In this document: positions 25,438-32,510 of the stretch, one piece after another | How positions within the stretch are numbered: the stretch's first letter is position 1 | Layout: each line of letters opens with the position of its first letter | Assembly: GCA_014685065.1 (NCBI GenBank) | Contig: GCA_014685065.1_3930.1 | Source of the DNA: a phage | Reading direction: 5' to 3' (one strand) | Length of the DNA: 64,000 bases | Notes under the pieces: generated by a model | Seen by the model: only the letters and a program-made list of their open reading frames with translations | Databases searched by the model: none | Told to the model about the DNA's origin: nothing | Made by a program: the position numbers and the translations under genes

Positions 25438-25513
25438 TGGAGAATCCGAAGGGACTCGAACCCTTATAAACCTGTTTTGCAGACAGGCACATAGCCATTT
25501 CTGTCACGGATTC
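25438..25513 (-). tRNA. tRNA-Cys (anticodon GCA)
   Basis: Hand-folded cloverleaf: acceptor GAATCCG/CGGATTC, anticodon loop CTGCAAA, T-loop TTCGAGT, CCA encoded. Confidence 0.65.
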
Positions 25514-25517
25514 AAAT

Positions 25518-25610
25518 TGGAGGAAGATACCAGACTTGAACTGGTACACCGATTTCTCAGCTACTGGCAGTTTAGCAAACTGCTCCCTTACCTTTTAGGG
25601 TTAATCTTCC
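25518..25610 (-). tRNA. tRNA-Ser (anticodon GCU), class II
   Basis: 93 nt; acceptor GGAAGAT/ATCTTCC, anticodon loop TTGCTAA, long variable arm, T-loop TTCAAGT, CCA encoded. Confidence 0.6.
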
Positions 25611-25611
25611 A

Positions 25612-26346
25612 TTATTTCTGTAATGCGTTCTTCATTTCTGGTGTTGCAATAGTGTCAATTACACCAGTTTTACAGGCATCATCAAACCAGTCTGGTAAGA
25701 TACCTGCTAAGAACCCATTGATATTCGTTTTAAGGTACTCTGCAATAAGGGCAGCTTCTTCTTCAATCATCTGCACAACTTCATCTGCATAAGCTGTAAT
25801 CTTTGAGATACCTTCATTAATCTTACTGACAGCTTGGTTAGCTAAATCAGAAACAGTATCAAGACCCTTGTCAATAGCGTCTTGTAAGTCACTTAATACA
25901 TCGTTAACACTCTCTAGTGTACTGTTAATCGTATCAATAGCTTTTTGACCATATTCTGTAGCAACACCCATAATACCACTGAACGGTGTACAACCAACTT
26001 GTTCTCCTGCTGCACCCATAACATTGGAATATCCATTTGCTACCTGCATACGTGATGAAAACTCATCAATAGATTTTTGACCGTAGTCTGTCAGGGTCTT
26101 AGTAGTTGCTGTAGTGCTTGTAAGGCTTGTTGTAAAGCTGTTTAGAAGGACTGTTGTAAGTCCAGCAGCAACAAGTTTCTCCTGCATTGTAGGGTCTGTT
26201 ACAGAACTAATAGAGCTTACAAGTGATGTAGAAGCAGCTACGGTTCCACCGAGAACTGCTGCACCAGTAATAAGTGGGTTAGAAAACCCTTTACCGGTTT
26301 TTAAGAGATTAAAAATCTCCTTACCTTGTTCTGTCATCTCTTTCAT
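25612..26346 (-). CDS. hypothetical protein within tRNA cluster
   Basis: ORF track start 26409 overlaps tRNA-Phe; start moved to internal ATG (MKEMTEQ...); Ser/Thr-rich middle, helical C-terminus. Confidence 0.45.
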   Translation of the reverse strand: MKEMTEQGKEIFNLLKTGKGFSNPLITGAAVLGGTVAASTSLVSSISSVTDPTMQEKLVAAGLTTVLLNSFTTSLTSTTATTKTLTDYGQKSIDEFSSRMQVANGYSNVMGAAGEQVGCTPFSGIMGVATEYGQKAIDTINSTLESVNDVLSDLQDAIDKGLDTVSDLANQAVSKINEGISKITAYADEVVQMIEEEAALIAEYLKTNINGFLAGILPDWFDDACKTGVIDTIATPEMKNALQK

Positions 26347-26362
26347 TAAGCACCTTTGAAAT

Positions 26363-26439
26363 TGGTAGTCCAGTGGGATTTGAACCCTCTTCTCATGTTT
26401 TTCAGACACGCGCTTTAACCATATAAGCTACTTGGACTA
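26363..26439 (-). tRNA. tRNA-Phe (anticodon GAA)
   Basis: Acceptor TAGTCCA/TGGACTA, anticodon stem CGTGT/ACATG with loop CTGAAAA, T-loop TTCAAAT. Confidence 0.55.
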
Positions 26440-26444
26440 TAAAT

Positions 26445-26520
26445 TGGGGTGACCTACGGGATTTGAACCCGTATAGACCATGTTCACAGCATGGGTCATT
26501 GCCATTTATGATAAGGCCAC
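26445..26520 (-). tRNA. tRNA-His (anticodon GUG)
   Basis: Acceptor GTGGCCT/AGGTCAC, anticodon loop CTGTGAA, T-loop TTCAAAT, CCA encoded. Confidence 0.65.
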
Positions 26521-26551
26521 ATTTAAGGACTCTCGTAAGAACCCTTAGAAG

Positions 26552-26627
26552 TGGCAGCGGCATAAGGATTTGAACCTTAATAGGACAGCTTCAGAGACTG
26601 TTGCATTGCCAGTTATGCTATACCGCT
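26552..26627 (-). tRNA. tRNA-Gln (anticodon CUG)
   Basis: Acceptor AGCGGTA/TGCCGCT, D-stem GCAT/ATGC, anticodon loop CTCTGAA, T-stem TAAGG/CCTTA, CCA encoded. Confidence 0.6.
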
Positions 26628-26632
26628 AAATT

Positions 26633-26711
26633 TGGTACTCCATATCGGATTCGAACCGATACATAACACAGATTTTAAGTCTGGCCTCTCTGCCAATTGG
26701 AGTAATGGAGC
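26633..26711 (-). tRNA. tRNA with anticodon UAA (Leu-type) but class I architecture
   Basis: Acceptor GCTCCAT/ATGGAGT, A73, anticodon loop CTTAAAA, perfect T-arm ATCGG-TTCGAAT-CCGAT; short variable region. Confidence 0.45.
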
Positions 26712-26713
26712 AT

Positions 26714-26788
26714 TGGCGGGGGATGTTGGAATTGAACCAACTTCTTCGATTTCAAAGACCGAGGTTTTAACCTTGTAAACTAATCCCC
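26714..26788 (-). tRNA. tRNA-Gln (anticodon UUG)
   Basis: Anticodon stem TCGGT/ATCGA, loop CTTTGAA, T-arm GTTGG-TTCAATT-CCAAC, CCA encoded. Confidence 0.55.
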
Positions 26789-26797
26789 TTTAAATCT

Positions 26798-27355
26798 TTA
26801 CTTTCTCAGTGGATGAATAAAGAATGCCAACATAACTCTTTCCCTTGAGAATGCTCTTTCTTCTGGGACAACACTTTTTAGTTTCCATCCAATATAAATT
26901 CTCCAGTAAAACTGTTTACCAAAGACTTTAATTGATGGGATAAAAGCGAATAATCCCCAAGCATTACTGTTCCACATTAGGAGATAACCTGTCTGATTAT
27001 CTTCAGGGTCAGAACTTACGTTGATATTACCTTTCCACTTAGTAACATCTTTTACATCTCTTCCTAATACATGGTAAGAGAAGTTATAAGCTTTGTTTCT
27101 CCAGAGCCATCCGACTCTCTGCATGTAGACACCCAGCTTACCAATCTTTCTAATCTTAGCCCATCGTTCGATATGACCTTCGTCACCATCAATTGGATTG
27201 TCATATGTCTCCATCCATCTAAATCCGAAAGGTAAGTGGCCTTTCTTCTCACTGTAAAATGGAACTACGAAAGGTGCTAAGATAACTGCTAAGGTTGCTG
27301 CTAATGGTTCTAGCAAAGCTAGGAAAATCCATGAAGCATATTTTAAATATCTCAT
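26798..27355 (-). CDS. hypothetical membrane protein within tRNA cluster
   Basis: 185 aa; N-terminal hydrophobic segments, Trp-rich; sits exactly between two tRNAs. Confidence 0.5.
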   Translation of the reverse strand: MRYLKYASWIFLALLEPLAATLAVILAPFVVPFYSEKKGHLPFGFRWMETYDNPIDGDEGHIERWAKIRKIGKLGVYMQRVGWLWRNKAYNFSYHVLGRDVKDVTKWKGNINVSSDPEDNQTGYLLMWNSNAWGLFAFIPSIKVFGKQFYWRIYIGWKLKSVVPEERAFSRERVMLAFFIHPLRK

Positions 27356-27364
27356 CTAAATAGC

Positions 27365-27440
27365 CTCTTTAAATTGGCGCAGGATAAGGGATTCGAACCC
27401 CTATTAACAGCTTCGTAGACTGTTGCTCTATCCATTTGAA
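27365..27440 (-). tRNA. tRNA-Arg (anticodon ACG)
   Basis: Acceptor GCAGGAT/ATCCTGC, anticodon stem ACAGT/GCTGT, loop CTACGAA, T-loop TTCGAAT, CCA encoded. Confidence 0.65.
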
Positions 27441-27445
27441 CTAAT

Positions 27446-27523
27446 CCTGCAAAATTGGTGTTCCAAGACGGATTCGAACCGTCACTAGTACAAGGTTTGA
27501 GCTTGCATCCTCTGCCAATTGGG
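27446..27523 (-). tRNA. tRNA with anticodon CAA (Leu-type), class I architecture
   Basis: Acceptor GTTCCAG/TTGGAAC, A73, anticodon stem GCAAG/CTTGT, loop CTCAAAC, T-arm GACGG-TTCGAAT-CCGTC. Confidence 0.45.
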
Positions 27524-27524
27524 A

Positions 27525-27599
27525 TACTGGAACATGGTACTCACTAAAGGACTTGAACCTTTTTCTTCATCTTGTAAGGGTGGTGTTTTACCATATAAA
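27525..27599 (-). tRNA. tRNA, probable Val (anticodon UAC); weak anticodon stem
   Basis: Good acceptor, D and T arms (AAAGG-TTCAAGT-CCTTT); loop CTTACAA but anticodon stem has two C/A mismatches. Confidence 0.35.
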
Positions 27600-27604
27600 C
27601 TAAG

Positions 27605-27690
27605 CGAGTATGAAAGAGGTCTGAAGTTGTGCCGCTAACTCAACTCCGTGGAATTTGTTACGGTCTTCAGTTGACACCAGCGGTCTTTCA
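27605..27690 (-). repeat. structured spacer element (CUGAAGACCG family, copy e)
   Basis: Closing inverted repeat AGAGGTC...GACCTCT; internal CTGAAG...CTTCAG stem; contains ACGGTCTTCAG box shared with the other spacers. Confidence 0.4.
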
Positions 27691-27694
27691 CTTG

Positions 27695-27771
27695 ACCTCT
27701 GAATTGGTGCTGCTCACAGGACTCGAACCTGCATTTCCATCCTTACAAGGGATGTGTAATAGCCAATTATA
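27695..27771 (-). tRNA. tRNA-Thr (anticodon UGU)
   Basis: Acceptor GCTGCTT/GAGCAGC, anticodon stem CATCC/GGATG, loop CTTGTAA, CCA encoded. Confidence 0.65.
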
Positions 27772-27777
27772 CGAAAG

Positions 27778-27852
27778 CAGCATTGTTTGGAGCATCCAGA
27801 GGGAATCGAACCCTCAACCTCAGTTTGGAAGACTGTAATTTTCCCGTTTAAA
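27778..27852 (-). tRNA. tRNA-Gly (anticodon UCC)
   Basis: Acceptor GCATCCA/TGGATGC, anticodon loop CTTCCAA, T-arm GAGGG-TTCGATT-CCCTC. Confidence 0.6.
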
Positions 27853-27858
27853 CTATGG

Positions 27859-27934
27859 ATGCACTAATTGGTGGAGAAGCAGGGAATTGAACCCTGTACT
27901 TAAGTTTGCAAAACTTATGTTTTAACCATGTAAA
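27859..27934 (-). tRNA. tRNA-Ala (anticodon UGC)
   Basis: Anticodon stem TAAGT/ACTTA, loop TTTGCAA, T-arm CAGGG-TTCAATT-CCCTG, CCA encoded. Confidence 0.6.
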
Positions 27935-27940
27935 CTACAT

Positions 27941-28016
27941 CCCCAATGTTTGGTACAGGTGGAGGGAATTGAACCCATCGTCTTACTGATTAAGAGTCAG
28001 CCGCATAACCATTTTG
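27941..28016 (-). tRNA. tRNA-Lys (anticodon CUU)
   Basis: Acceptor GCAGGTG/CACCTGT, anticodon stem GCTGA/TCAGT, loop CTCTTAA, CCA encoded. Confidence 0.55.
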
Positions 28017-28023
28017 CTACACC

Positions 28024-28100
28024 TGCATTAATTTGGTACACCTAGAGAGATTCGAACTCACACTGAGCAGATTCTAAGTCTGCTGCCTCTACCAATTGGG
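28024..28100 (-). tRNA. tRNA with anticodon UAG (Leu-type), class I architecture
   Basis: Acceptor GCACCTA/TAGGTGT, A73, anticodon stem GCAGA/TCTGC, loop CTTAGAA, T-loop TTCGAAT. Confidence 0.45.
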
Positions 28101-28356
28101 CTATAGGTGCATTAAATCTTTTTAGAGAACTTCTAAGAACCTAAGCAACAAGGTTCCACAACAAGCTGTAATAACCTTAGAAGCCCTCTAAAAAGACCTA
28201 ATTTGGTCTTTGCATAGTCTTGTTTAATCCGGTGACTAGAACCTTTGGAGAGCTTGATATTATCTCTTCTCCGTGACACCTACTAGGTGCTTTACTGTGC
28301 GTGTACGACAATACACGAGGGATACCAAAGCAACATCCGAATGAAGCTTGGCTTTA

Positions 28357-28446
28357 AATCTTATTAGGCGGTAAGTAAAGGAGTCGAACCCTCACCGTAT
28401 CTCTACAGTGGCAACTGTTTTCAAGACAGTTTGGCTACCATTAGCC
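28357..28446 (-). tRNA. tRNA-Ser (anticodon UGA), class II
   Basis: ~90 nt; acceptor GGTAGGT/ACTTACC, perfect anticodon stem ACTGT/ACAGT, loop CTTGAAA, long variable arm; only CC of CCA encoded. Confidence 0.55.
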
Positions 28447-28459
28447 GCTACCTACCCCT

Positions 28460-28542
28460 AATAAGACTTTGGCATGGGACGGAGGAGTTGAACCACTTTG
28501 AAACGGTTTTGGAGGCCGTTGCTCATGCCTTAGAGTCTTAAC
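28460..28542 (-). tRNA. tRNA-like gene, possible Trp (anticodon CCA); atypical D-region and T-stem
   Basis: Perfect acceptor GTGGGAC/GTCCCAT with CCA; loop CTCCAAA; D-loop over-long and T-stem with mismatches, may be degenerate. Confidence 0.35.
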
Positions 28543-28684
28543 ATCGTCCCACACTATAATTCGAAGCTTACCGTATTTTCACAACACTGTAAAGCCCCTT
28601 CTCAGATTATTTACATGTTCTGGAAAACATGAGATACAGACCACCTCCTTACACGGAGACCCGATAAGGTCGTCTAAGCAATCT

Positions 28685-28761
28685 GCTAACTATTTGGCAC
28701 ACCCTACAGGATTCGAACCTGTAACTAACGATTTAGAAGACCGTTGCTCTATCCAATTGAA
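28685..28761 (-). tRNA. tRNA-Arg (anticodon UCU)
   Basis: Acceptor GCACCCT/AGGGTGT, anticodon stem ACGGT/ATCGT, loop CTTCTAA; D-arm near-identical to tRNA-Arg(ACG). Confidence 0.65.
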
Positions 28762-29008
28762 CTAAGGGTGCATTAATCTTTAAAGACTCTCTTAGAAAGC
28801 CCTTAAAGATGCCCACCTTATTAATCATACCGTGGGCGAGTACGCCAAATTCTTTGATGAGGGATTGGAAGACCTCACTGGTGTTTAGCCTATCAAGCTA
28901 CTGCCAGAAAAACATTGTCGTTTGCATTTATTTTAAATTTGCAAAATAGACGCTACGCAACGAAAACTAAGGTTACTATAAAGTGGTCACATCTCAATGT
29001 CAACAACT

Positions 29009-29084
29009 TTATTGAAATTGGTACTGTGAGAAGGATTCGAACCTTCTGCCTTTCGGTTATCAGCCGAATGCACATCCATATGTG
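29009..29084 (-). tRNA. tRNA-Ile (anticodon GAU)
   Basis: Acceptor GCTGTGA/TCACAGT, D-stem GCAC/GTGC, anticodon stem TTCGG/CCGAA, loop CTGATAA, CCA encoded. Confidence 0.65.
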
Positions 29085-29087
29085 CTT

Positions 29088-29573
29088 TCACAGCATTGTT
29101 ACCCCTTCGTGTACCTCTCTGTGGCAATTTGCACACAGTAATACACACTTATCAACTTCAGACTTCATTACCTCTATAGAGAAGTGTTTTTGTCCTACTG
29201 TGAAGTCCTTTGTATTAGGGTCTAAGTGGTGAAACTCTAAAGCCTTTATGCACTTATTGTATCCACAAATTGAGCAACAACCACCTTTGTAATCAACTAA
29301 AACCCTCTTAAGTTTGTCACGAGACTTTTTAACGTGTTGTGACTTCGCTTTCTTTTCTTCATCGGGGTTTTTGTATTGTTTCAGAATACCATTTGAAATA
29401 CATTCATCACAATACTTTCTTGATTTTGGTGTTTGTTTTCCACATGAATGACAAGAGCCTTCTTGTCTTCTTTTTGGATGACTCTTGTTGTTTACCCTTG
29501 CAGCACAAGAGCGTGAACAATATTTTCCGCCTTTAACGGCTTTGTTGTCACAATCTTTATTAGCACAAAACAT
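29088..29573 (-). CDS. HNH homing endonuclease with N-terminal Cys-rich zinc-finger repeats
   Basis: C-terminal HNH motif (CCSICGYN...LEFHHLDP...CVLLCANCHREVH); four CxxC-type pairs N-terminally; ORF-track start at 29732 would overlap tRNA-Met so start set at MFCANKDC. Confidence 0.7.
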   Translation of the reverse strand: MFCANKDCDNKAVKGGKYCSRSCAARVNNKSHPKRRQEGSCHSCGKQTPKSRKYCDECISNGILKQYKNPDEEKKAKSQHVKKSRDKLKRVLVDYKGGCCSICGYNKCIKALEFHHLDPNTKDFTVGQKHFSIEVMKSEVDKCVLLCANCHREVHEGVTML

Positions 29574-29589
29574 AATATCACCAACGAAT

Positions 29590-29666
29590 TGGAGGTTCAG
29601 ATGGGAATCGAACCCACATTCATAGGGCTTATGAGACCCCTGCATTACCTTATCTGCGACTGAACC
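29590..29666 (-). tRNA. tRNA-Met (anticodon CAU; elongator vs initiator vs Ile2 unresolved)
   Basis: Acceptor GGTTCAG/CTGAACC, anticodon stem GGGGT/GCCCT with G-U ends, loop CTCATAA, T-loop TTCGATT. Confidence 0.6.
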
Positions 29667-29670
29667 ATAT

Positions 29671-29746
29671 TGGTAGAAGTGGAGGGATTCGAACCCATCG
29701 CCTGTCAGATTAAAAGTCTGCCGCATCACCATTCTGCTACACTTCC
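29671..29746 (-). tRNA. tRNA-Lys (anticodon UUU)
   Basis: Anticodon loop CTTTTAA, T-arm similar to tRNA-Lys(CUU), CCA encoded. Confidence 0.6.
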
Positions 29747-29752
29747 ATTAAA

Positions 29753-29894
29753 ATTATCTTTGTAGATAAGCTATCCAGACTTGCTTAAGGTCTGTAGCGA
29801 TGTGCCTTGTTGGGTTTAAATCTAGAATTTACCCTTTCACTCTTTGTGGTCGCATACTCACAGGTAAGCTTAATAACTTATCTACAAAGATAAT
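29753..29894 (-). repeat. perfect 18-bp inverted repeat pair flanking a 106-bp core (hairpin RNA or MITE-like insertion)
   Basis: ATTATCTTTGTAGATAAG at 29753-29770 and exact reverse complement at 29877-29894; core holds CAGAC-TTGCTTAAG-GTCTG hairpin. Confidence 0.5.
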
Positions 29895-29895
29895 T

Positions 29896-30028
29896 ACCAG
29901 ACCGTTGTTTATCATCTTAAGTGCTACCATTACACCAACTCGACATCTGCCGAGTGAAGGAATCGAACCTTCGCCTTTTCTTTACCGGAGAAATAGATTG
30001 TTTAAGTTTTGCTGTAAACGGTCTTCTG
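29896..30028 (-). repeat. spacer element copy a (CCAGACC...GGTCTTCTG family) containing tRNA-like T-arm and D-arm in permuted order
   Basis: Closing stem AGACCGTT/AACGGTCT; internal GGCGAAGG-TTCGATT-CCTTC T-arm-like hairpin followed by GAGTTGGTGTAATGGTAGCAC D-arm-like segment. Confidence 0.4.
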
Positions 30029-30040
30029 TAAATTTGTTGA

Positions 30041-30116
30041 GCCAGACCAAGTTTTAAATTTTCAAAATTAAATTGGCTTGAAATTTCATACATTCTTGCT
30101 GTATTTGGTCTTCTGC
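30041..30116 (-). repeat. spacer element copy b (CCAGACC...GGTCTTCTG family)
   Basis: GCCAGACCAAG...TTGGTCTTCTG closing inverted repeat; conserved ACAGCAAG box in minus sense. Confidence 0.4.
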
Positions 30117-30202
30117 TCCTTTAAAGAATACTCGTAAGAACCCTTTAAGGGAGGGGCTAAATAGCCCTCTCAAAACATCATCTTGAAATACTTATTATAA
30201 TT

Positions 30203-30279
30203 TGGCGGTTACGAAGGGATTTGAACCCTCATCATCTCCCGTGACAGGGGAGTATTTTAACCAGTTAAACTACATAACC
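30203..30279 (-). tRNA. tRNA-Asp (anticodon GUC)
   Basis: Anticodon stem CTCCC/GGGAG, loop CTGTCAC, T-arm GAGGG-TTCAAAT-CCCTT, CCA encoded. Confidence 0.65.
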
Positions 30280-30285
30280 TTTATT

Positions 30286-30373
30286 TGGTGTGCCGTGTAG
30301 GAGTCGAACCTACCGAGTCTCAATGACAAGGGATTTACAGTCCCCACCGCTACCATCTACGGGATAACGACAC
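30286..30373 (-). tRNA. tRNA-Tyr (anticodon GUA), class II
   Basis: 88 nt; acceptor GTGTCGT/ACGGCAC, anticodon stem GGGGA/TCCCT, loop CTGTAAA, long variable arm, T-arm GTAGG-TTCGACT-CCTAC. Confidence 0.6.
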
Positions 30374-30442
30374 ATTTAATTTCTATTCAGGCTAAGGACT
30401 TGCACCTTACAAATCGGTGAGCAATCGCTTCTCTCCTAAATT

Positions 30443-30519
30443 TGGCGGTTAGTCAGGGATTCGAACCCTGTGCCATTCGCTTAACAGGCGACCGCACATA
30501 CCTTATGTGCTTCCTAACC
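30443..30519 (-). tRNA. tRNA-Asn (anticodon GUU)
   Basis: D-stem GCAC/GTGC, anticodon loop CTGTTAA, T-arm CAGGG-TTCGAAT-CCCTG, CCA encoded. Confidence 0.6.
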
Positions 30520-30529
30520 TTAATACATT

Positions 30530-30591
30530 GCCAGACCGTGTTTTTTCTTTTATCCGCAAAAAGTATTTTGTTGCTGAATACGGTCTTCTGC
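30530..30591 (-). repeat. spacer element copy c (CCAGACC...GGTCTTCTG family)
   Basis: GCCAGACCGTG...ATACGGTCTTCTG closing inverted repeat with ~45-nt structured loop. Confidence 0.4.
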
Positions 30592-30596
30592 AAAAT

Positions 30597-30672
30597 TGGA
30601 GGCGGGTGCAGGAGTCGAACCTGCCGATACCATGCTAATGAGACATGTGAGACGCCCTTTCTCTATACCCGC
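30597..30672 (-). tRNA. second CAU-anticodon tRNA (Met/fMet/Ile2 candidate)
   Basis: D-stem GAGA/TCTC, anticodon stem CATGT/GCATG, loop CTCATTA (unusual U at position 37), T-arm GCAGG-TTCGACT-CCTGC. Confidence 0.5.
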
Positions 30673-30683
30673 AATTCTTAATG

Positions 30684-30759
30684 ACCAGACCAAATCTCTT
30701 CTTTGTCCGATTTACCTTCAGATGAATAAGATTAAGTTTGCTGTAATTGGTCTTCTGTC
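30684..30759 (-). repeat. spacer element copy d (CCAGACC...GGTCTTCTG family)
   Basis: GACCAGACCAAA...ATTGGTCTTCTG closing inverted repeat; conserved ACAGCAAACTTAA box in minus sense. Confidence 0.4.
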
Positions 30760-30764
30760 AAAAC

Positions 30765-30842
30765 TGGCGTTCCAGAAGGGATTTGAACCCTCAAATATCC
30801 ACTTTGAAAGAGTGGTGACTTTACCATTTTGTCTACTGGAAC
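30765..30842 (-). tRNA. tRNA-Glu (anticodon UUC)
   Basis: Perfect acceptor GTTCCAG/CTGGAAC and anticodon stem CCACT/AGTGG, loop CTTTCAA, CCA encoded. Confidence 0.65.
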
Positions 30843-30849
30843 ATTAATT

Positions 30850-30929
30850 TGGTCTCCGTTGAAGGATTTGAACCCTCGACCCCTTGCTCCCAAAGCAAGT
30901 GCTGCTAAACCAAACTGAGCTAAACGGAG
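30850..30929 (-). tRNA. tRNA-Pro (anticodon UGG)
   Basis: Anticodon stem CTTGC/GCAAG, loop TTTGGGA; 3' half resembles bacterial tRNA-Pro (GGGGTCGAGGGTTCAAATCC); CCA encoded. Confidence 0.6.
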
Positions 30930-31094: not shown

Positions 31095-32510
31095 TTACCA
31101 GATGTAACGGTCAATCATTACTGCTTTGAGCATTACGCTGATTGGGTCAAACTTCTCACCACCAAGCAGAGCTTTTAAAGTGGCTGGAGAGAACCCTGAT
31201 ACCATTGCTACACCATTATCCTTAACAGATACTTCGCAAGTACCATTACGGTTTGCTAAGTACCAGAATACCAGTTGTGGCATTTTGTATCCAGCTTTTT
31301 TGTACTTACTACGAATCGCTTCAAAGTTTGTACGACCATTAGCTCCATCAACCTGATTGAACTCCATATCAGAGAAGATAATAAGCTTACTTGGCATATC
31401 TTTCTGAGTCAAGTTGTTTCTCTTACCTGTTTCAAGAATGCGGTCAAAAGCTGCTTGTAAGTTAGTTGAGCCATATTCAACGTGTCGCATCACCTGACGA
31501 TGACGGTTTCGTAAATCACCACTCAGTTCGATGAAGTGAGGGTTTGTCGAATAAACCATCAACTCATTCTTAAAGCAACCTGTATTGCGTTCTGCTACAT
31601 ACAAGGCAAGTGATACACCAATATCCAGAGCAGTAATGGAGCCAAAATTCACCCAAGACATTGAACTTGATACATCAGACATACACAAGATGTTTTCACC
31701 TTCTGCCATCCAGTTTGGTAGTGCTTTCCACTGCTCATTAGCAACATCTGCATTACCATACTTGACAGATTTAATCACATCGTATGGGTAAACAGCACCA
31801 GCGTTAATCTTAGTCTCACCTTTTGATAAGGACTCGATGTAAGCTTTGTAACGCTCTCCATCTTTACGGTTAAACAGTTTTTGGTAACGTGCAGCAGCAA
31901 GTGAAGGAATCTTACTGTAGTCAATCTTACCAAACTCATTAGCAGAGATTTTTTGCTCAACTGTATCAGATAGTGCAGACAACAGTGTGCGATACTCTTT
32001 CTCACTCAAGTTTGCAAACTTGCAGAAACGTTTTACAAACTGTTTGTGACGTGGTTTTACTCGTGGTAACCACTTAGCTGCTAAACCTGCTGTTGCAGGG
32101 TCTAGTAAAGCTGCTTCTAAATGTTTGAAGGCATCTGTCTCGAAACGAGTACCTACAAAGATTTTGAAGTCATCAAAGCGACCAAGCTCTGCAATCTTAT
32201 CCATAATGCGAAGAACCTGCGTAGGCTCTAAAACTTTATCTTCAATCGCTTGAAGTAAAACAGTTCGGAAAGCTTTACGCTCACCCATACCTTCTCGTAC
32301 ATCTCGCATATGCAGTAAAATACGAACTGCAACATCAACATCCTCATGCAAAGCTTTGTAGAACAAGTCTGGTAAGATTTCTACATTGCTACGGCTGGAA
32401 CCAGCAGCTTTGTAAAAGTCCACAAGAGCAGACATTGATGAAGTATGGTTTACAGCACCATTTTCAGTTCGACCTGCATGAAGGTGCGCATGTTTAAATA
32501 ATTCGCTCAT
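31095..32510 (-). CDS. von Willebrand factor A (vWA) domain protein with helical N-terminal domain
   Basis: 471 aa; MIDAS-like DxSxS motif (MSDVSSSMS) and downstream Thr/Asp positions (GSTNL, IIFSDMEF) typical of vWA. Confidence 0.55.
   Translation of the reverse strand: MSELFKHAHLHAGRTENGAVNHTSSMSALVDFYKAAGSSRSNVEILPDLFYKALHEDVDVAVRILLHMRDVREGMGERKAFRTVLLQAIEDKVLEPTQVLRIMDKIAELGRFDDFKIFVGTRFETDAFKHLEAALLDPATAGLAAKWLPRVKPRHKQFVKRFCKFANLSEKEYRTLLSALSDTVEQKISANEFGKIDYSKIPSLAAARYQKLFNRKDGERYKAYIESLSKGETKINAGAVYPYDVIKSVKYGNADVANEQWKALPNWMAEGENILCMSDVSSSMSWVNFGSITALDIGVSLALYVAERNTGCFKNELMVYSTNPHFIELSGDLRNRHRQVMRHVEYGSTNLQAAFDRILETGKRNNLTQKDMPSKLIIFSDMEFNQVDGANGRTNFEAIRSKYKKAGYKMPQLVFWYLANRNGTCEVSVKDNGVAMVSGFSPATLKALLGGEKFDPISVMLKAVMIDRYIW

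Follow-up and report, generated by a model that had tools for sequence, protein, structure and literature searches.

Can a transfer RNA (tRNA) with a leucine anticodon lack the long variable arm and still serve as a leucine tRNA in an enterobacterial cell? This question is raised by a 64,000-nucleotide (nt) stretch of phage DNA (NCBI GenBank assembly GCA_014685065.1, contig GCA_014685065.1_3930.1; the whole stretch is called the window below), in which an array of 26 tRNA genes contains three with the leucine anticodons UAA, CAA and UAG and short variable regions (class I, or type I). An earlier note, made from the sequence alone, had proposed that these tRNAs are either leucine isoacceptors recognised through A73 and tertiary elements or charged with something else. 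The first alternative was favoured by the leucine identity set, by isotype models and by the anticodons of the family to which the tRNAs belong, whereas charging by the host leucyl-tRNA synthetase (LeuRS) is a prediction. With a probability of about 0.7, the window encodes three functional type I tRNA-Leu that are charged by the host LeuRS via A73 and a Leu-type core and decode UUA, UUG and CUA.

Structure and leucine identity elements of the three tRNAs

The genes were located with ARAGORN on the minus strand at 26633-26711 (type I tRNA-Leu(UAA)), 27456-27533 (type I tRNA-Leu(CAA)) and 28034-28110 (type I tRNA-Leu(UAG)), all three with an encoded CCA; the earlier note had placed the first exactly and the second and third each 10 nt too low. 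All three exceeded the gathering score (29) of the Rfam tRNA model RF00005, with 47.5 bits (E = 5e-8), 43.6 bits (E = 5.7e-7) and 58.9 bits (E = 3.6e-11), respectively. The UAA, CAA and UAG species are 79, 78 and 77 nt long with CCA and 76, 75 and 74 nt without it. A cloverleaf position was then assigned to every nucleotide of the three tRNAs, and the tRNA-Leu of Escherichia coli, T4 and T5 were parsed likewise. This parse confirmed the anticodon loops CTTAAAA (UAA), CTCAAAC (CAA) and CTTAGAA (UAG) that had been noted earlier, together with the short class I variable regions, which are GUUAUGU (7 nt) in the UAA species, ACUAGU (6 nt) in the CAA species and the family-typical UCAGU (5 nt) in the UAG species. 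As in type I tRNA-Leu, each tRNA has a Leu anticodon and a short variable loop that contains nucleotide 48 and is no shorter than 5 nt (5–7 nt, ending in U48), and none has the long variable arm of class II (>10 nt, with a stem-loop). A hidden long arm or a misfold, the oversight that the earlier note had itself considered, was ruled out, as all stems were accounted for within the 74–76 nt that remain without CCA.

The three Leu tRNAs share the motif CCAATTGGYAGAG, which occurs in no other tRNA of the array, and the discriminator A73; both had been pointed out before and were found in all three. The D-arms read CUCC/AAUUGGCAG/AGAG in the UAA species, UCCC/AAUUGGCAG/AGGA in the CAA species and GCCC/AAUUGGUAG/AGGC in the UAG species. 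The D-stem is 3 base pairs (bp) long and closed by a non-Watson-Crick 13·22 pair, and the 9-nt D-loop is A14 A15 U16 U17 G18 G19 Y20 A20a G21 (AAUUGGYAG), the numbering of A20a following this 9-nt loop. The description of this D-arm as unusual was not borne out: E. coli leuW has the D-loop AAUUGGUAG, which is also the most frequent one in a sample of 88 bacterial class II tRNA-Leu, so that the loop is of the ordinary Leu type and only A9 and C13 depart from class II. In the bacterial class II genes sampled, G9 was present in 88/88 and G/A13·A22 in 83/88. The three phage tRNAs lack this class II core (G9, purine13·A22) and carry A9 and C13·A22, as do most short Leu tRNAs. Because the variable region packs against these positions, A9 and C13·A22 may adjust the core to a variable loop of 5 nt. 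As a marker specific for Leu, AATTGGYAG proved only partly valid, since tRNAs for Thr, Lys and Trp with a 4-bp D-stem also contain it, across the junction of loop and stem.

The E. coli genes with the same anticodons, leuW (UAG), leuZ (UAA) and leuX (CAA), likewise have a 3-bp D-stem with a non-Watson-Crick 13·22 pair, A15, U48 and A73, and the leuW D-loop matches the phage type. However, they differ from the phage tRNAs in their 13–15-nt variable arms, G9, A/G13·A22 and T-loops (UUCAAGU or UUCGAGU). The T4 tRNA-Leu(UAA) (87 nt) and the T5 tRNA-Leu(UAG) (85 nt) also come from coliphage arrays and have A73 and a Leu-type D-loop, but with a 13–15-nt variable arm and G9 they belong to class II.

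E. coli LeuRS requires A73, A14, A15-U48, G18G19, A20a and tertiary pairs that join the D-loop to the T-loop, and both the anticodon and the long arm are dispensable (PMC9976931, PMC6614811). In addition to A73, all three phage tRNAs contain the T-loop UUCGAAU and the nucleotides of U8:A14, A15-U48, G18G19, A20a, U54:A58, G18:U55 and G19-C56. Isotype models point in the same direction. For the orthologues in Shigella phage Sf14 (Mooglevirus), which differ from those of the window by 2 nt (UAG), 1 nt (CAA) and 1 nt (UAA), tRNAscan-SE 2.0 placed Leu first in all three cases and preferred no other amino acid: 67.4 for Leu, 65.7 for Ile2 and 63.4 for Lys in the UAG species, 49.1 for Leu and 36.1 for Lys, the next, in the CAA species, and 60.2 for Leu and 54.2 for Lys, again the next, in the UAA species (PMC12482277). 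The bacterial Leu isotype model was presumably built on long-armed tRNA-Leu and expects the long arm, and therefore short tRNA-Leu are probably under-scored.

Leucine codons in the open reading frames (ORFs) of the window are mainly those that these tRNAs would read, TTA accounting for 30%, TTG for 13% and CTA for 11%. The relative synonymous codon usage of TTA is 1.81 in the window and 1.06 in Shigella (PMC12482277). In the mechanism that we propose, the LeuRS of the enterobacterial host would charge the three tRNAs with leucine while reading neither the anticodon nor a long arm. The enzyme would instead read A73 plus the shape of the core and elbow (U8:A14, A15-U48, G18G19, A20a and the T-loop pairs) on the 9-nt D-loop and 3-bp D-stem, all of these elements being retained. 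Once charged, the tRNAs would decode UUA/UUG, UUG and CUA, with further CUN codons read by wobble, and would thereby serve codons used much more by the AT-rich phage than by its host.

A family of short tRNA-Leu in phages and Actinobacteria

At least 217 distinct short Leu tRNAs, from phages of many hosts and from actinobacterial chromosomes, make up the family of the three tRNAs, and nearly all of them have Leu anticodons. A blastn search with the UAG species matched 298 phage records. Gapless or near-gapless matches, at 76–83% identity over 88–97% of the query, came from phages of Mycobacterium, Streptomyces, Cronobacter, Klebsiella, Enterobacter and Synechococcus and are annotated as tRNA-Leu, and partial matches over 69–78% of the query fell in tRNA-Leu genes of Enterococcus, Pseudomonas, Acinetobacter and Lactobacillus phages and of one crAss-like phage. 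ARAGORN found one to three tRNA-Leu of 74–78 nt in each of eight matched phage loci; the Ser/Tyr tRNAs, where present, were 82–95 nt long.

In IMG/VR, the body pattern AATTGGYAG, 31–35 nt, GTTCGAATC was present at a minimum of 120 loci. Among the matches listed, 120/131 pattern-bearing tRNAs have an anticodon for Leu (tag in 39, caa in 37, taa in 31, gag in 7, cag in 5 and aag in 1), and the other 11 belong to other isotypes, with a 4-bp D-stem that the motif straddles. The window tRNAs were also compared, after removal of the anticodon and variable loop, with 1,925 distinct tRNAs of all isotypes, and 27–30 of the 30 nearest neighbours of each were short Leu tRNAs. One body thus occurs with anticodons of both unrelated Leu boxes, which fits a synthetase that is blind to the anticodon. 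We take this restriction to Leu-box anticodons as the strongest indirect evidence, drawn from sequence comparison, that the family would accept leucine.

Some phage arrays also contain tRNAs with a CUA anticodon, would-be amber suppressors that ARAGORN labels 'Pyl'. Such tRNAs were seen in Synechococcus phage BUCT-ZZ01 (L005 7129-7204) and at two further loci (L061 6309-6388; L078 9-86), the latter two with a D-arm that is not of the Leu type. The idea that the 'Pyl(cta)' tRNAs among the pattern matches are Leu-derived suppressors was ruled out by their different D-arm.

Structural constraint was assessed in 119 family members, thinned to at most 92% identity. In this set, for which the parse demanded good stems and of which 94/119 members came from the pattern that fixes parts of the D- and T-loops, 98.4% of the stem cells were canonical pairs, compared with 41–45% for shifted partners, and changes on both sides were seen in 39% of the pair cells. 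A73 was found in 119/119 members, U48 in 117/119, A15 in 117/119 and A20a in 116/119; A73 and U48 had been left unspecified in every search pattern. The family signature consists of U8-A9, C13·A22, a 9-nt AAYYGGYAG D-loop, an NMAGU variable loop, a UUCGAAU T-loop and A73. The UAG species of the window carries it completely, and the CAA and UAA species are complete save for 1–2 additional variable-loop nt.

At least three class I subfamilies can be distinguished by their cores, namely A9/C13·A22, A9/U13·U22 and the class II-like G9/G13·A22. The A9/U13·U22 subfamily has the variable loop UGGUU (IMG/VR loci such as L107, L118 and L126), and the G9/G13·A22 subfamily has AUUUU (IMG/VR loci such as L123, L019 and L092). 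Because the subfamilies differ in core nucleotides, several independent arm losses are suggested, and the comparison suggests that class I tRNA-Leu has more than one origin.

The prevalence of the class was estimated for tRNA-Leu(UAA) with the class-neutral pattern CTTAAAA, 12–32 nt, GTTCRARTC, in two censuses that, relying on this single combination of anticodon loop and T-loop, are samples of the matches listed rather than full counts. The 92 tRNA-Leu(UAA) among the matches listed from IMG/VR divided into 25 of class I and 67 of class II; for loci with at least five tRNAs, the numbers were 13 class I vs. 24 class II. Among those listed from one genome per GTDB species, 9 of 91 were class I and 82 class II, so that the viral and genomic fractions differ (Fisher p = 0.004). 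The spacing between the anticodon loop and the T-loop in the listed viral tRNA-Leu(UAA) was strictly bimodal, either 14 nt or 20–30 nt with nothing between, and the arms seem to have been lost whole, not shortened stepwise.

Each of the nine genomic class I genes is a single chromosomal gene, and eight of the nine come from records with actinobacterial names: Nocardioides (two), Gordonia, Arcanobacterium, Herbiconiux, Nonomuraea, Nocardia and an uncultured Actinomycetes bin. A phage-only trait was thereby ruled out, and the premise of the earlier note that bacterial tRNA-Leu are all class II proved wrong for Actinobacteria, on the evidence of this genome scan and of PMC6614811. A trait of high-GC actinophages alone was likewise ruled out, as GC content in the class I viral loci ranges over 23–64%, the median lying near 40%. 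The UAG species of the window and actinobacterial chromosomal class I tRNA-Leu(UAA) have up to 80% of their core positions in common. The core identity of the phage Leu tRNAs is 65–74% to actinobacterial class I Leu tRNAs vs. 47–64% to the E. coli Leu tRNAs, and blastn found no match to the UAG gene among 5,426 complete E. coli genomes. A recent arm deletion from a host tRNA-Leu is therefore unsupported.

Short tRNA-Leu had been encountered in actinobacterial arrays before. One study mentioned in passing that a tRNA gene cluster of Mycobacterium contains a tRNA-Leu(TAG) with a short loop (Behra et al., 2019, PMC6582537), and long loops are implied for only three M. tuberculosis tRNA-Leu (PMC11541572). 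These clusters and the cluster C mycobacteriophages resemble the window in having short tRNA-Leu in an array, which in their case contains an HNH endonuclease gene, and the tRNA-Leu(CAG) of Mycobacterium phage Cali is 83% identical to the UAG species over positions 8–75 without gaps. The Mycobacterium clusters differ in that their host is actinobacterial and type I tRNA-Leu is native to the group. According to a 2023 identity review, tRNA-Leu is long-armed everywhere save in animal mitochondria, whose tRNA-Leu, such as human mt-tRNA-Leu(UUR), is class I with identity via A73 and A14 (PMC9976931). By description, not by sequence, the phage tRNAs are like these in the short loop and A73/A14, but the mitochondrial tRNAs are organellar, floppy and served by a dedicated LeuRS, unlike the phage tRNAs, whose elbow and core are fully canonical. 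In the full-text literature covered, which is incomplete and gives absence of evidence only, no paper describing class I tRNA-Leu in phages, including phages of Enterobacteria, was found.

Charging by enterobacterial LeuRS and competing explanations

Streptomyces coelicolor has a type I tRNA-Leu(CAA) with the variable loop ACAGC that is leucylated by its own LeuRS (Fan et al., 2019, PMC6614811). The same study found that 5 nt is the minimal type I variable loop, that A14 matters and that the leucine-specific domain of LeuRS decides type I charging; the type I tRNA coexists with class II tRNA-Leu and a single LeuRS in one cytoplasm (PMC6614811). Compared from its published description and not from the gene sequence, this tRNA resembles the phage tRNAs in the Leu anticodon, the 5-nt NCAGN loop (UAG species), U8:A14 and A73. 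The phage set differs in coming from phages of Enterobacteria and in having three anticodons, two loops of 6 and 7 nt, and U48 opposite A15 where the S. coelicolor substrate has C48. Moreover, the LeuRS that charges the S. coelicolor tRNA has a special leucine-specific domain.

Several points weigh against three functional, host-charged tRNA-Leu. E. coli LeuRS (EcLeuRS) did not leucylate S. coelicolor tRNA-Leu(CAA), the only natural type I tRNA tested, and is described as type II-only, with a leucine-specific domain that favours a large variable region (PMC6614811). The literature searched yielded no data on how any Felixounavirus tRNA is expressed, processed or charged. The isotype-model margin of the UAG species is thin. 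A C27·U43 mismatch is present in the anticodon stem of the UAA species and a U50·U64 mismatch in the T-stem of the UAG species. Furthermore, the UAG species has A37 instead of the G37 of the E. coli CUN-reading tRNA-Leu, and the CAA species has C38, which breaks the A36-A37-A38 motif. By the requirements of TrmD and MiaA, m1G37 is made at G37 and MiaA uses the A36-A37-A38 motif; the modification of position 37 probably differs from that of the host isoacceptors.

The negative EcLeuRS result may not transfer to the phage tRNAs, because these have U48, paired with A15, in place of C48. This difference may reconcile the retained identity set with the failure of EcLeuRS on the Streptomyces tRNA, and charging of the phage tRNAs in enterobacteria appears likely from the identity nucleotides that they carry.

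Why the arm was lost is a separate matter. Leu would be the only class II tRNA able to lose its arm, because SerRS (seryl-tRNA synthetase) needs the arm and bacterial TyrRS (tyrosyl-tRNA synthetase) contacts it, and the Ser and Tyr tRNAs were arm-bearing in every phage array examined. Neutral loss could be the reason. A possible but rather doubtful account is that the arm-less Leu tRNAs, charged by LeuRS, escape toxins or nucleases that recognise the class II arm and so keep leucine decoding going when host tRNA-Leu is inactivated. Since it concerns why the arm was lost, this account is compatible with host charging. MenT3 selects tRNA-Ser by its loop, deletion of which abolishes modification and grafting of which confers it, yet MenT3 prefers Ser over Leu (PMC11541572). 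AbiEii is suspected of selecting class II tRNAs by the arm, but the literature covered describes no Enterobacteria toxin that targets tRNA-Leu via the arm. The higher frequency of class I among the listed viral than cellular tRNA-Leu(UAA) (25/92 vs. 9/91, p = 0.004) fits such an escape but would equally follow from relaxed constraint or from shared ancestry of phage arrays. The strictly bimodal variable-region length and the differing cores of the class I subfamilies, which suggest repeated independent arm loss, are in its favour. On the other hand, the Ser/Tyr tRNAs of the same phages bear arms and would hence still be vulnerable, and class II tRNA-Leu serve T4 and T5 well. Taken further, the account would make arm-less tRNA-Leu a general, largely unrecognised trait of phage arrays, possibly of multiple origins, that hides a Leu decoder from AbiE/MenT-type toxins or nucleases, a generalisation that we likewise hold to be unlikely.

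Less probable again is that host LeuRS charges these RNAs poorly or not at all, and that they either have another role, as decoys for tRNA-binding host factors or as regulatory or structural RNAs, or need a phage-encoded helper. If enterobacterial LeuRS were unable to charge them, the phage may alter the specificity of LeuRS, or the RNAs may serve a non-decoding use. The EcLeuRS failure on the type I S. coelicolor tRNA, for which domain swaps implicate the leucine-specific domain (PMC6614811), favours this explanation, as does a DUF2828/DUF7788 protein that is encoded beside the array and annotated as an RNA-binding protein in relatives. It is opposed by the full E. coli identity set, with an invariant A73 and a nearly invariant U48, neither of which is required for folding, and by Leu-only anticodons that track the most-used codons of the phage, which would be unexpected for a decoy. 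In addition, arm-less E. coli tRNA-Leu variants have been reported active (PMC9976931).

Charging with an amino acid other than leucine, the second alternative of the earlier note, would entail ambiguous decoding of UUR and CUA and is very improbable. A73 is common to several other identities, the Ile2 and Lys isotype scores lie close to Leu for the UAG species, and the tRNAs nearest to the CAA species, once Leu tRNAs are set aside, belong to a mixture of isotypes. However, the family body occurs with UAA, CAA, UAG, CAG and GAG, anticodons that correspond precisely to the two leucine boxes, whereas the Ile, Lys, Met, Phe and Val synthetases read the anticodon. Mischarging would also damage the whole proteome, as over half of the phage Leu codons would be read by these tRNAs.

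The least probable explanation is that a deletion removed the arm and the genes are now decaying as pseudogenes. Two of the tRNAs have a single stem mismatch each, and the Felix O1 RefSeq record flags two other array tRNAs as pseudogenes, which would fit decay, but the genes differ by only 1–2 nt across genera (Felixounavirus vs. Mooglevirus), pairing in the family is 98.4% canonical and compensatory changes are abundant, CCA is encoded and the Rfam scores are well above threshold.

The tRNA array, its relatives and the meaning of the finding

By its sequence, the window is a Felix O1-like phage of the genus Felixounavirus (Ounavirinae). The 26-gene array was delimited with ARAGORN at 25438-30929 on the minus strand, and the Rfam tRNA model at its gathering score lists 24 of the 26. 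The two that fall below that score are the tRNA-Tyr at 30286-30373 (-) and one tRNA-Met at 30597-30673 (-). The tRNA-Ser (93 and 90 nt) and the tRNA-Tyr (88 nt) of the array retain long variable arms. The tRNA-Ser(UGA) at 28367-28456 (-) scores only 33 bits and is the sole array tRNA whose ARAGORN call does not end in CCA. In the Felix O1 RefSeq record, the genes marked as pseudogenes are those of the Tyr and His tRNAs.

The array region is 93–97% identical to that of many Felix O1-like phages of Escherichia, Salmonella and Shigella. Matches to the array were found in 350 phage records, many of which have three annotated tRNA-Leu. Phage Sf14 has the identical 26-tRNA set in identical order. 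The array of Felix O1 is near-collinear with that of the window, and its RefSeq record has a tRNA-Leu annotation at all three slots. The UAA species of Felix O1 is identical to that of the window and the CAA species differs by 1 nt. The UAG slot of Felix O1 (NC_005282 26975-27052) holds a different short tRNA-Leu(UAG), with G9, the D-loop UAAUUGGUAA and the variable loop UGUUU, and the family-typical UAG gene fills that slot in the window, in Sf14 and in many coliphage relatives. Because the tRNA in this slot is quite different in Felix O1, close relatives appear to have swapped a tRNA cassette.

Three ORFs within the array were searched against Pfam, and none of them matched an HNH domain. 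The ORF at 25612-26409 matched DUF7217 and the ORF at 26798-27355 matched DUF7338; the ORF at 29088-29732 matched no Pfam family. In Felix O1, three HNH homing-endonuclease ORFs are annotated among the tRNA genes. The ORF at 29088-29732 occupies the position of one of these, ORF44, and may be a divergent homologue of it. Adjoining the array is a 471-amino-acid ORF at 31095-32510 (-) with DUF2828 and DUF7788 domains, whose counterparts in Felix O1 and Sf14 are annotated 'RNA-binding protein'. In Streptomyces phage Yaboi, a 'Ro-like RNA binding protein' (L004 1-262) is found beside the tRNA array, and there may be a recurring association of Ro/TROVE-like proteins with phage tRNA arrays. In Enterococcus phage EFDG1, ARAGORN called a transfer-messenger RNA with the tag peptide AKNEELLAVA within the tRNA array (L006 4301-4648).

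Hundreds of related genomes have long had the genes described here annotated as tRNA-Leu, and tRNA-Leu of type I is known, if little known. What appears to be undescribed is that phages of Enterobacteria carry it and that it is common in phage arrays generally, class I making up about a quarter of the listed viral tRNA-Leu(UAA) in the class-neutral sample. The carriers belong to a virulent, well-studied family of E. coli and Salmonella phages used in phage typing and therapy, and the three arm-less genes are conserved across genera and in hundreds of genomes. For annotation, the finding means that short tRNA-Leu are probably under-scored by the Leu isotype model. Type I tRNA-Leu in enterobacterial phages is in apparent conflict with the published statement that E. 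coli LeuRS is type II-only (PMC6614811). The question thus raised is whether enterobacterial LeuRS charge natural type I tRNA-Leu and through which nucleotides, with A15-U48 vs. C48 as the obvious candidate. The answer would bear on the rules of leucine identity, on the design of compact or orthogonal Leu-type tRNAs, and on why phages carry tRNAs at all, be it for the supply of codons or as a means of evading defences that target tRNAs.

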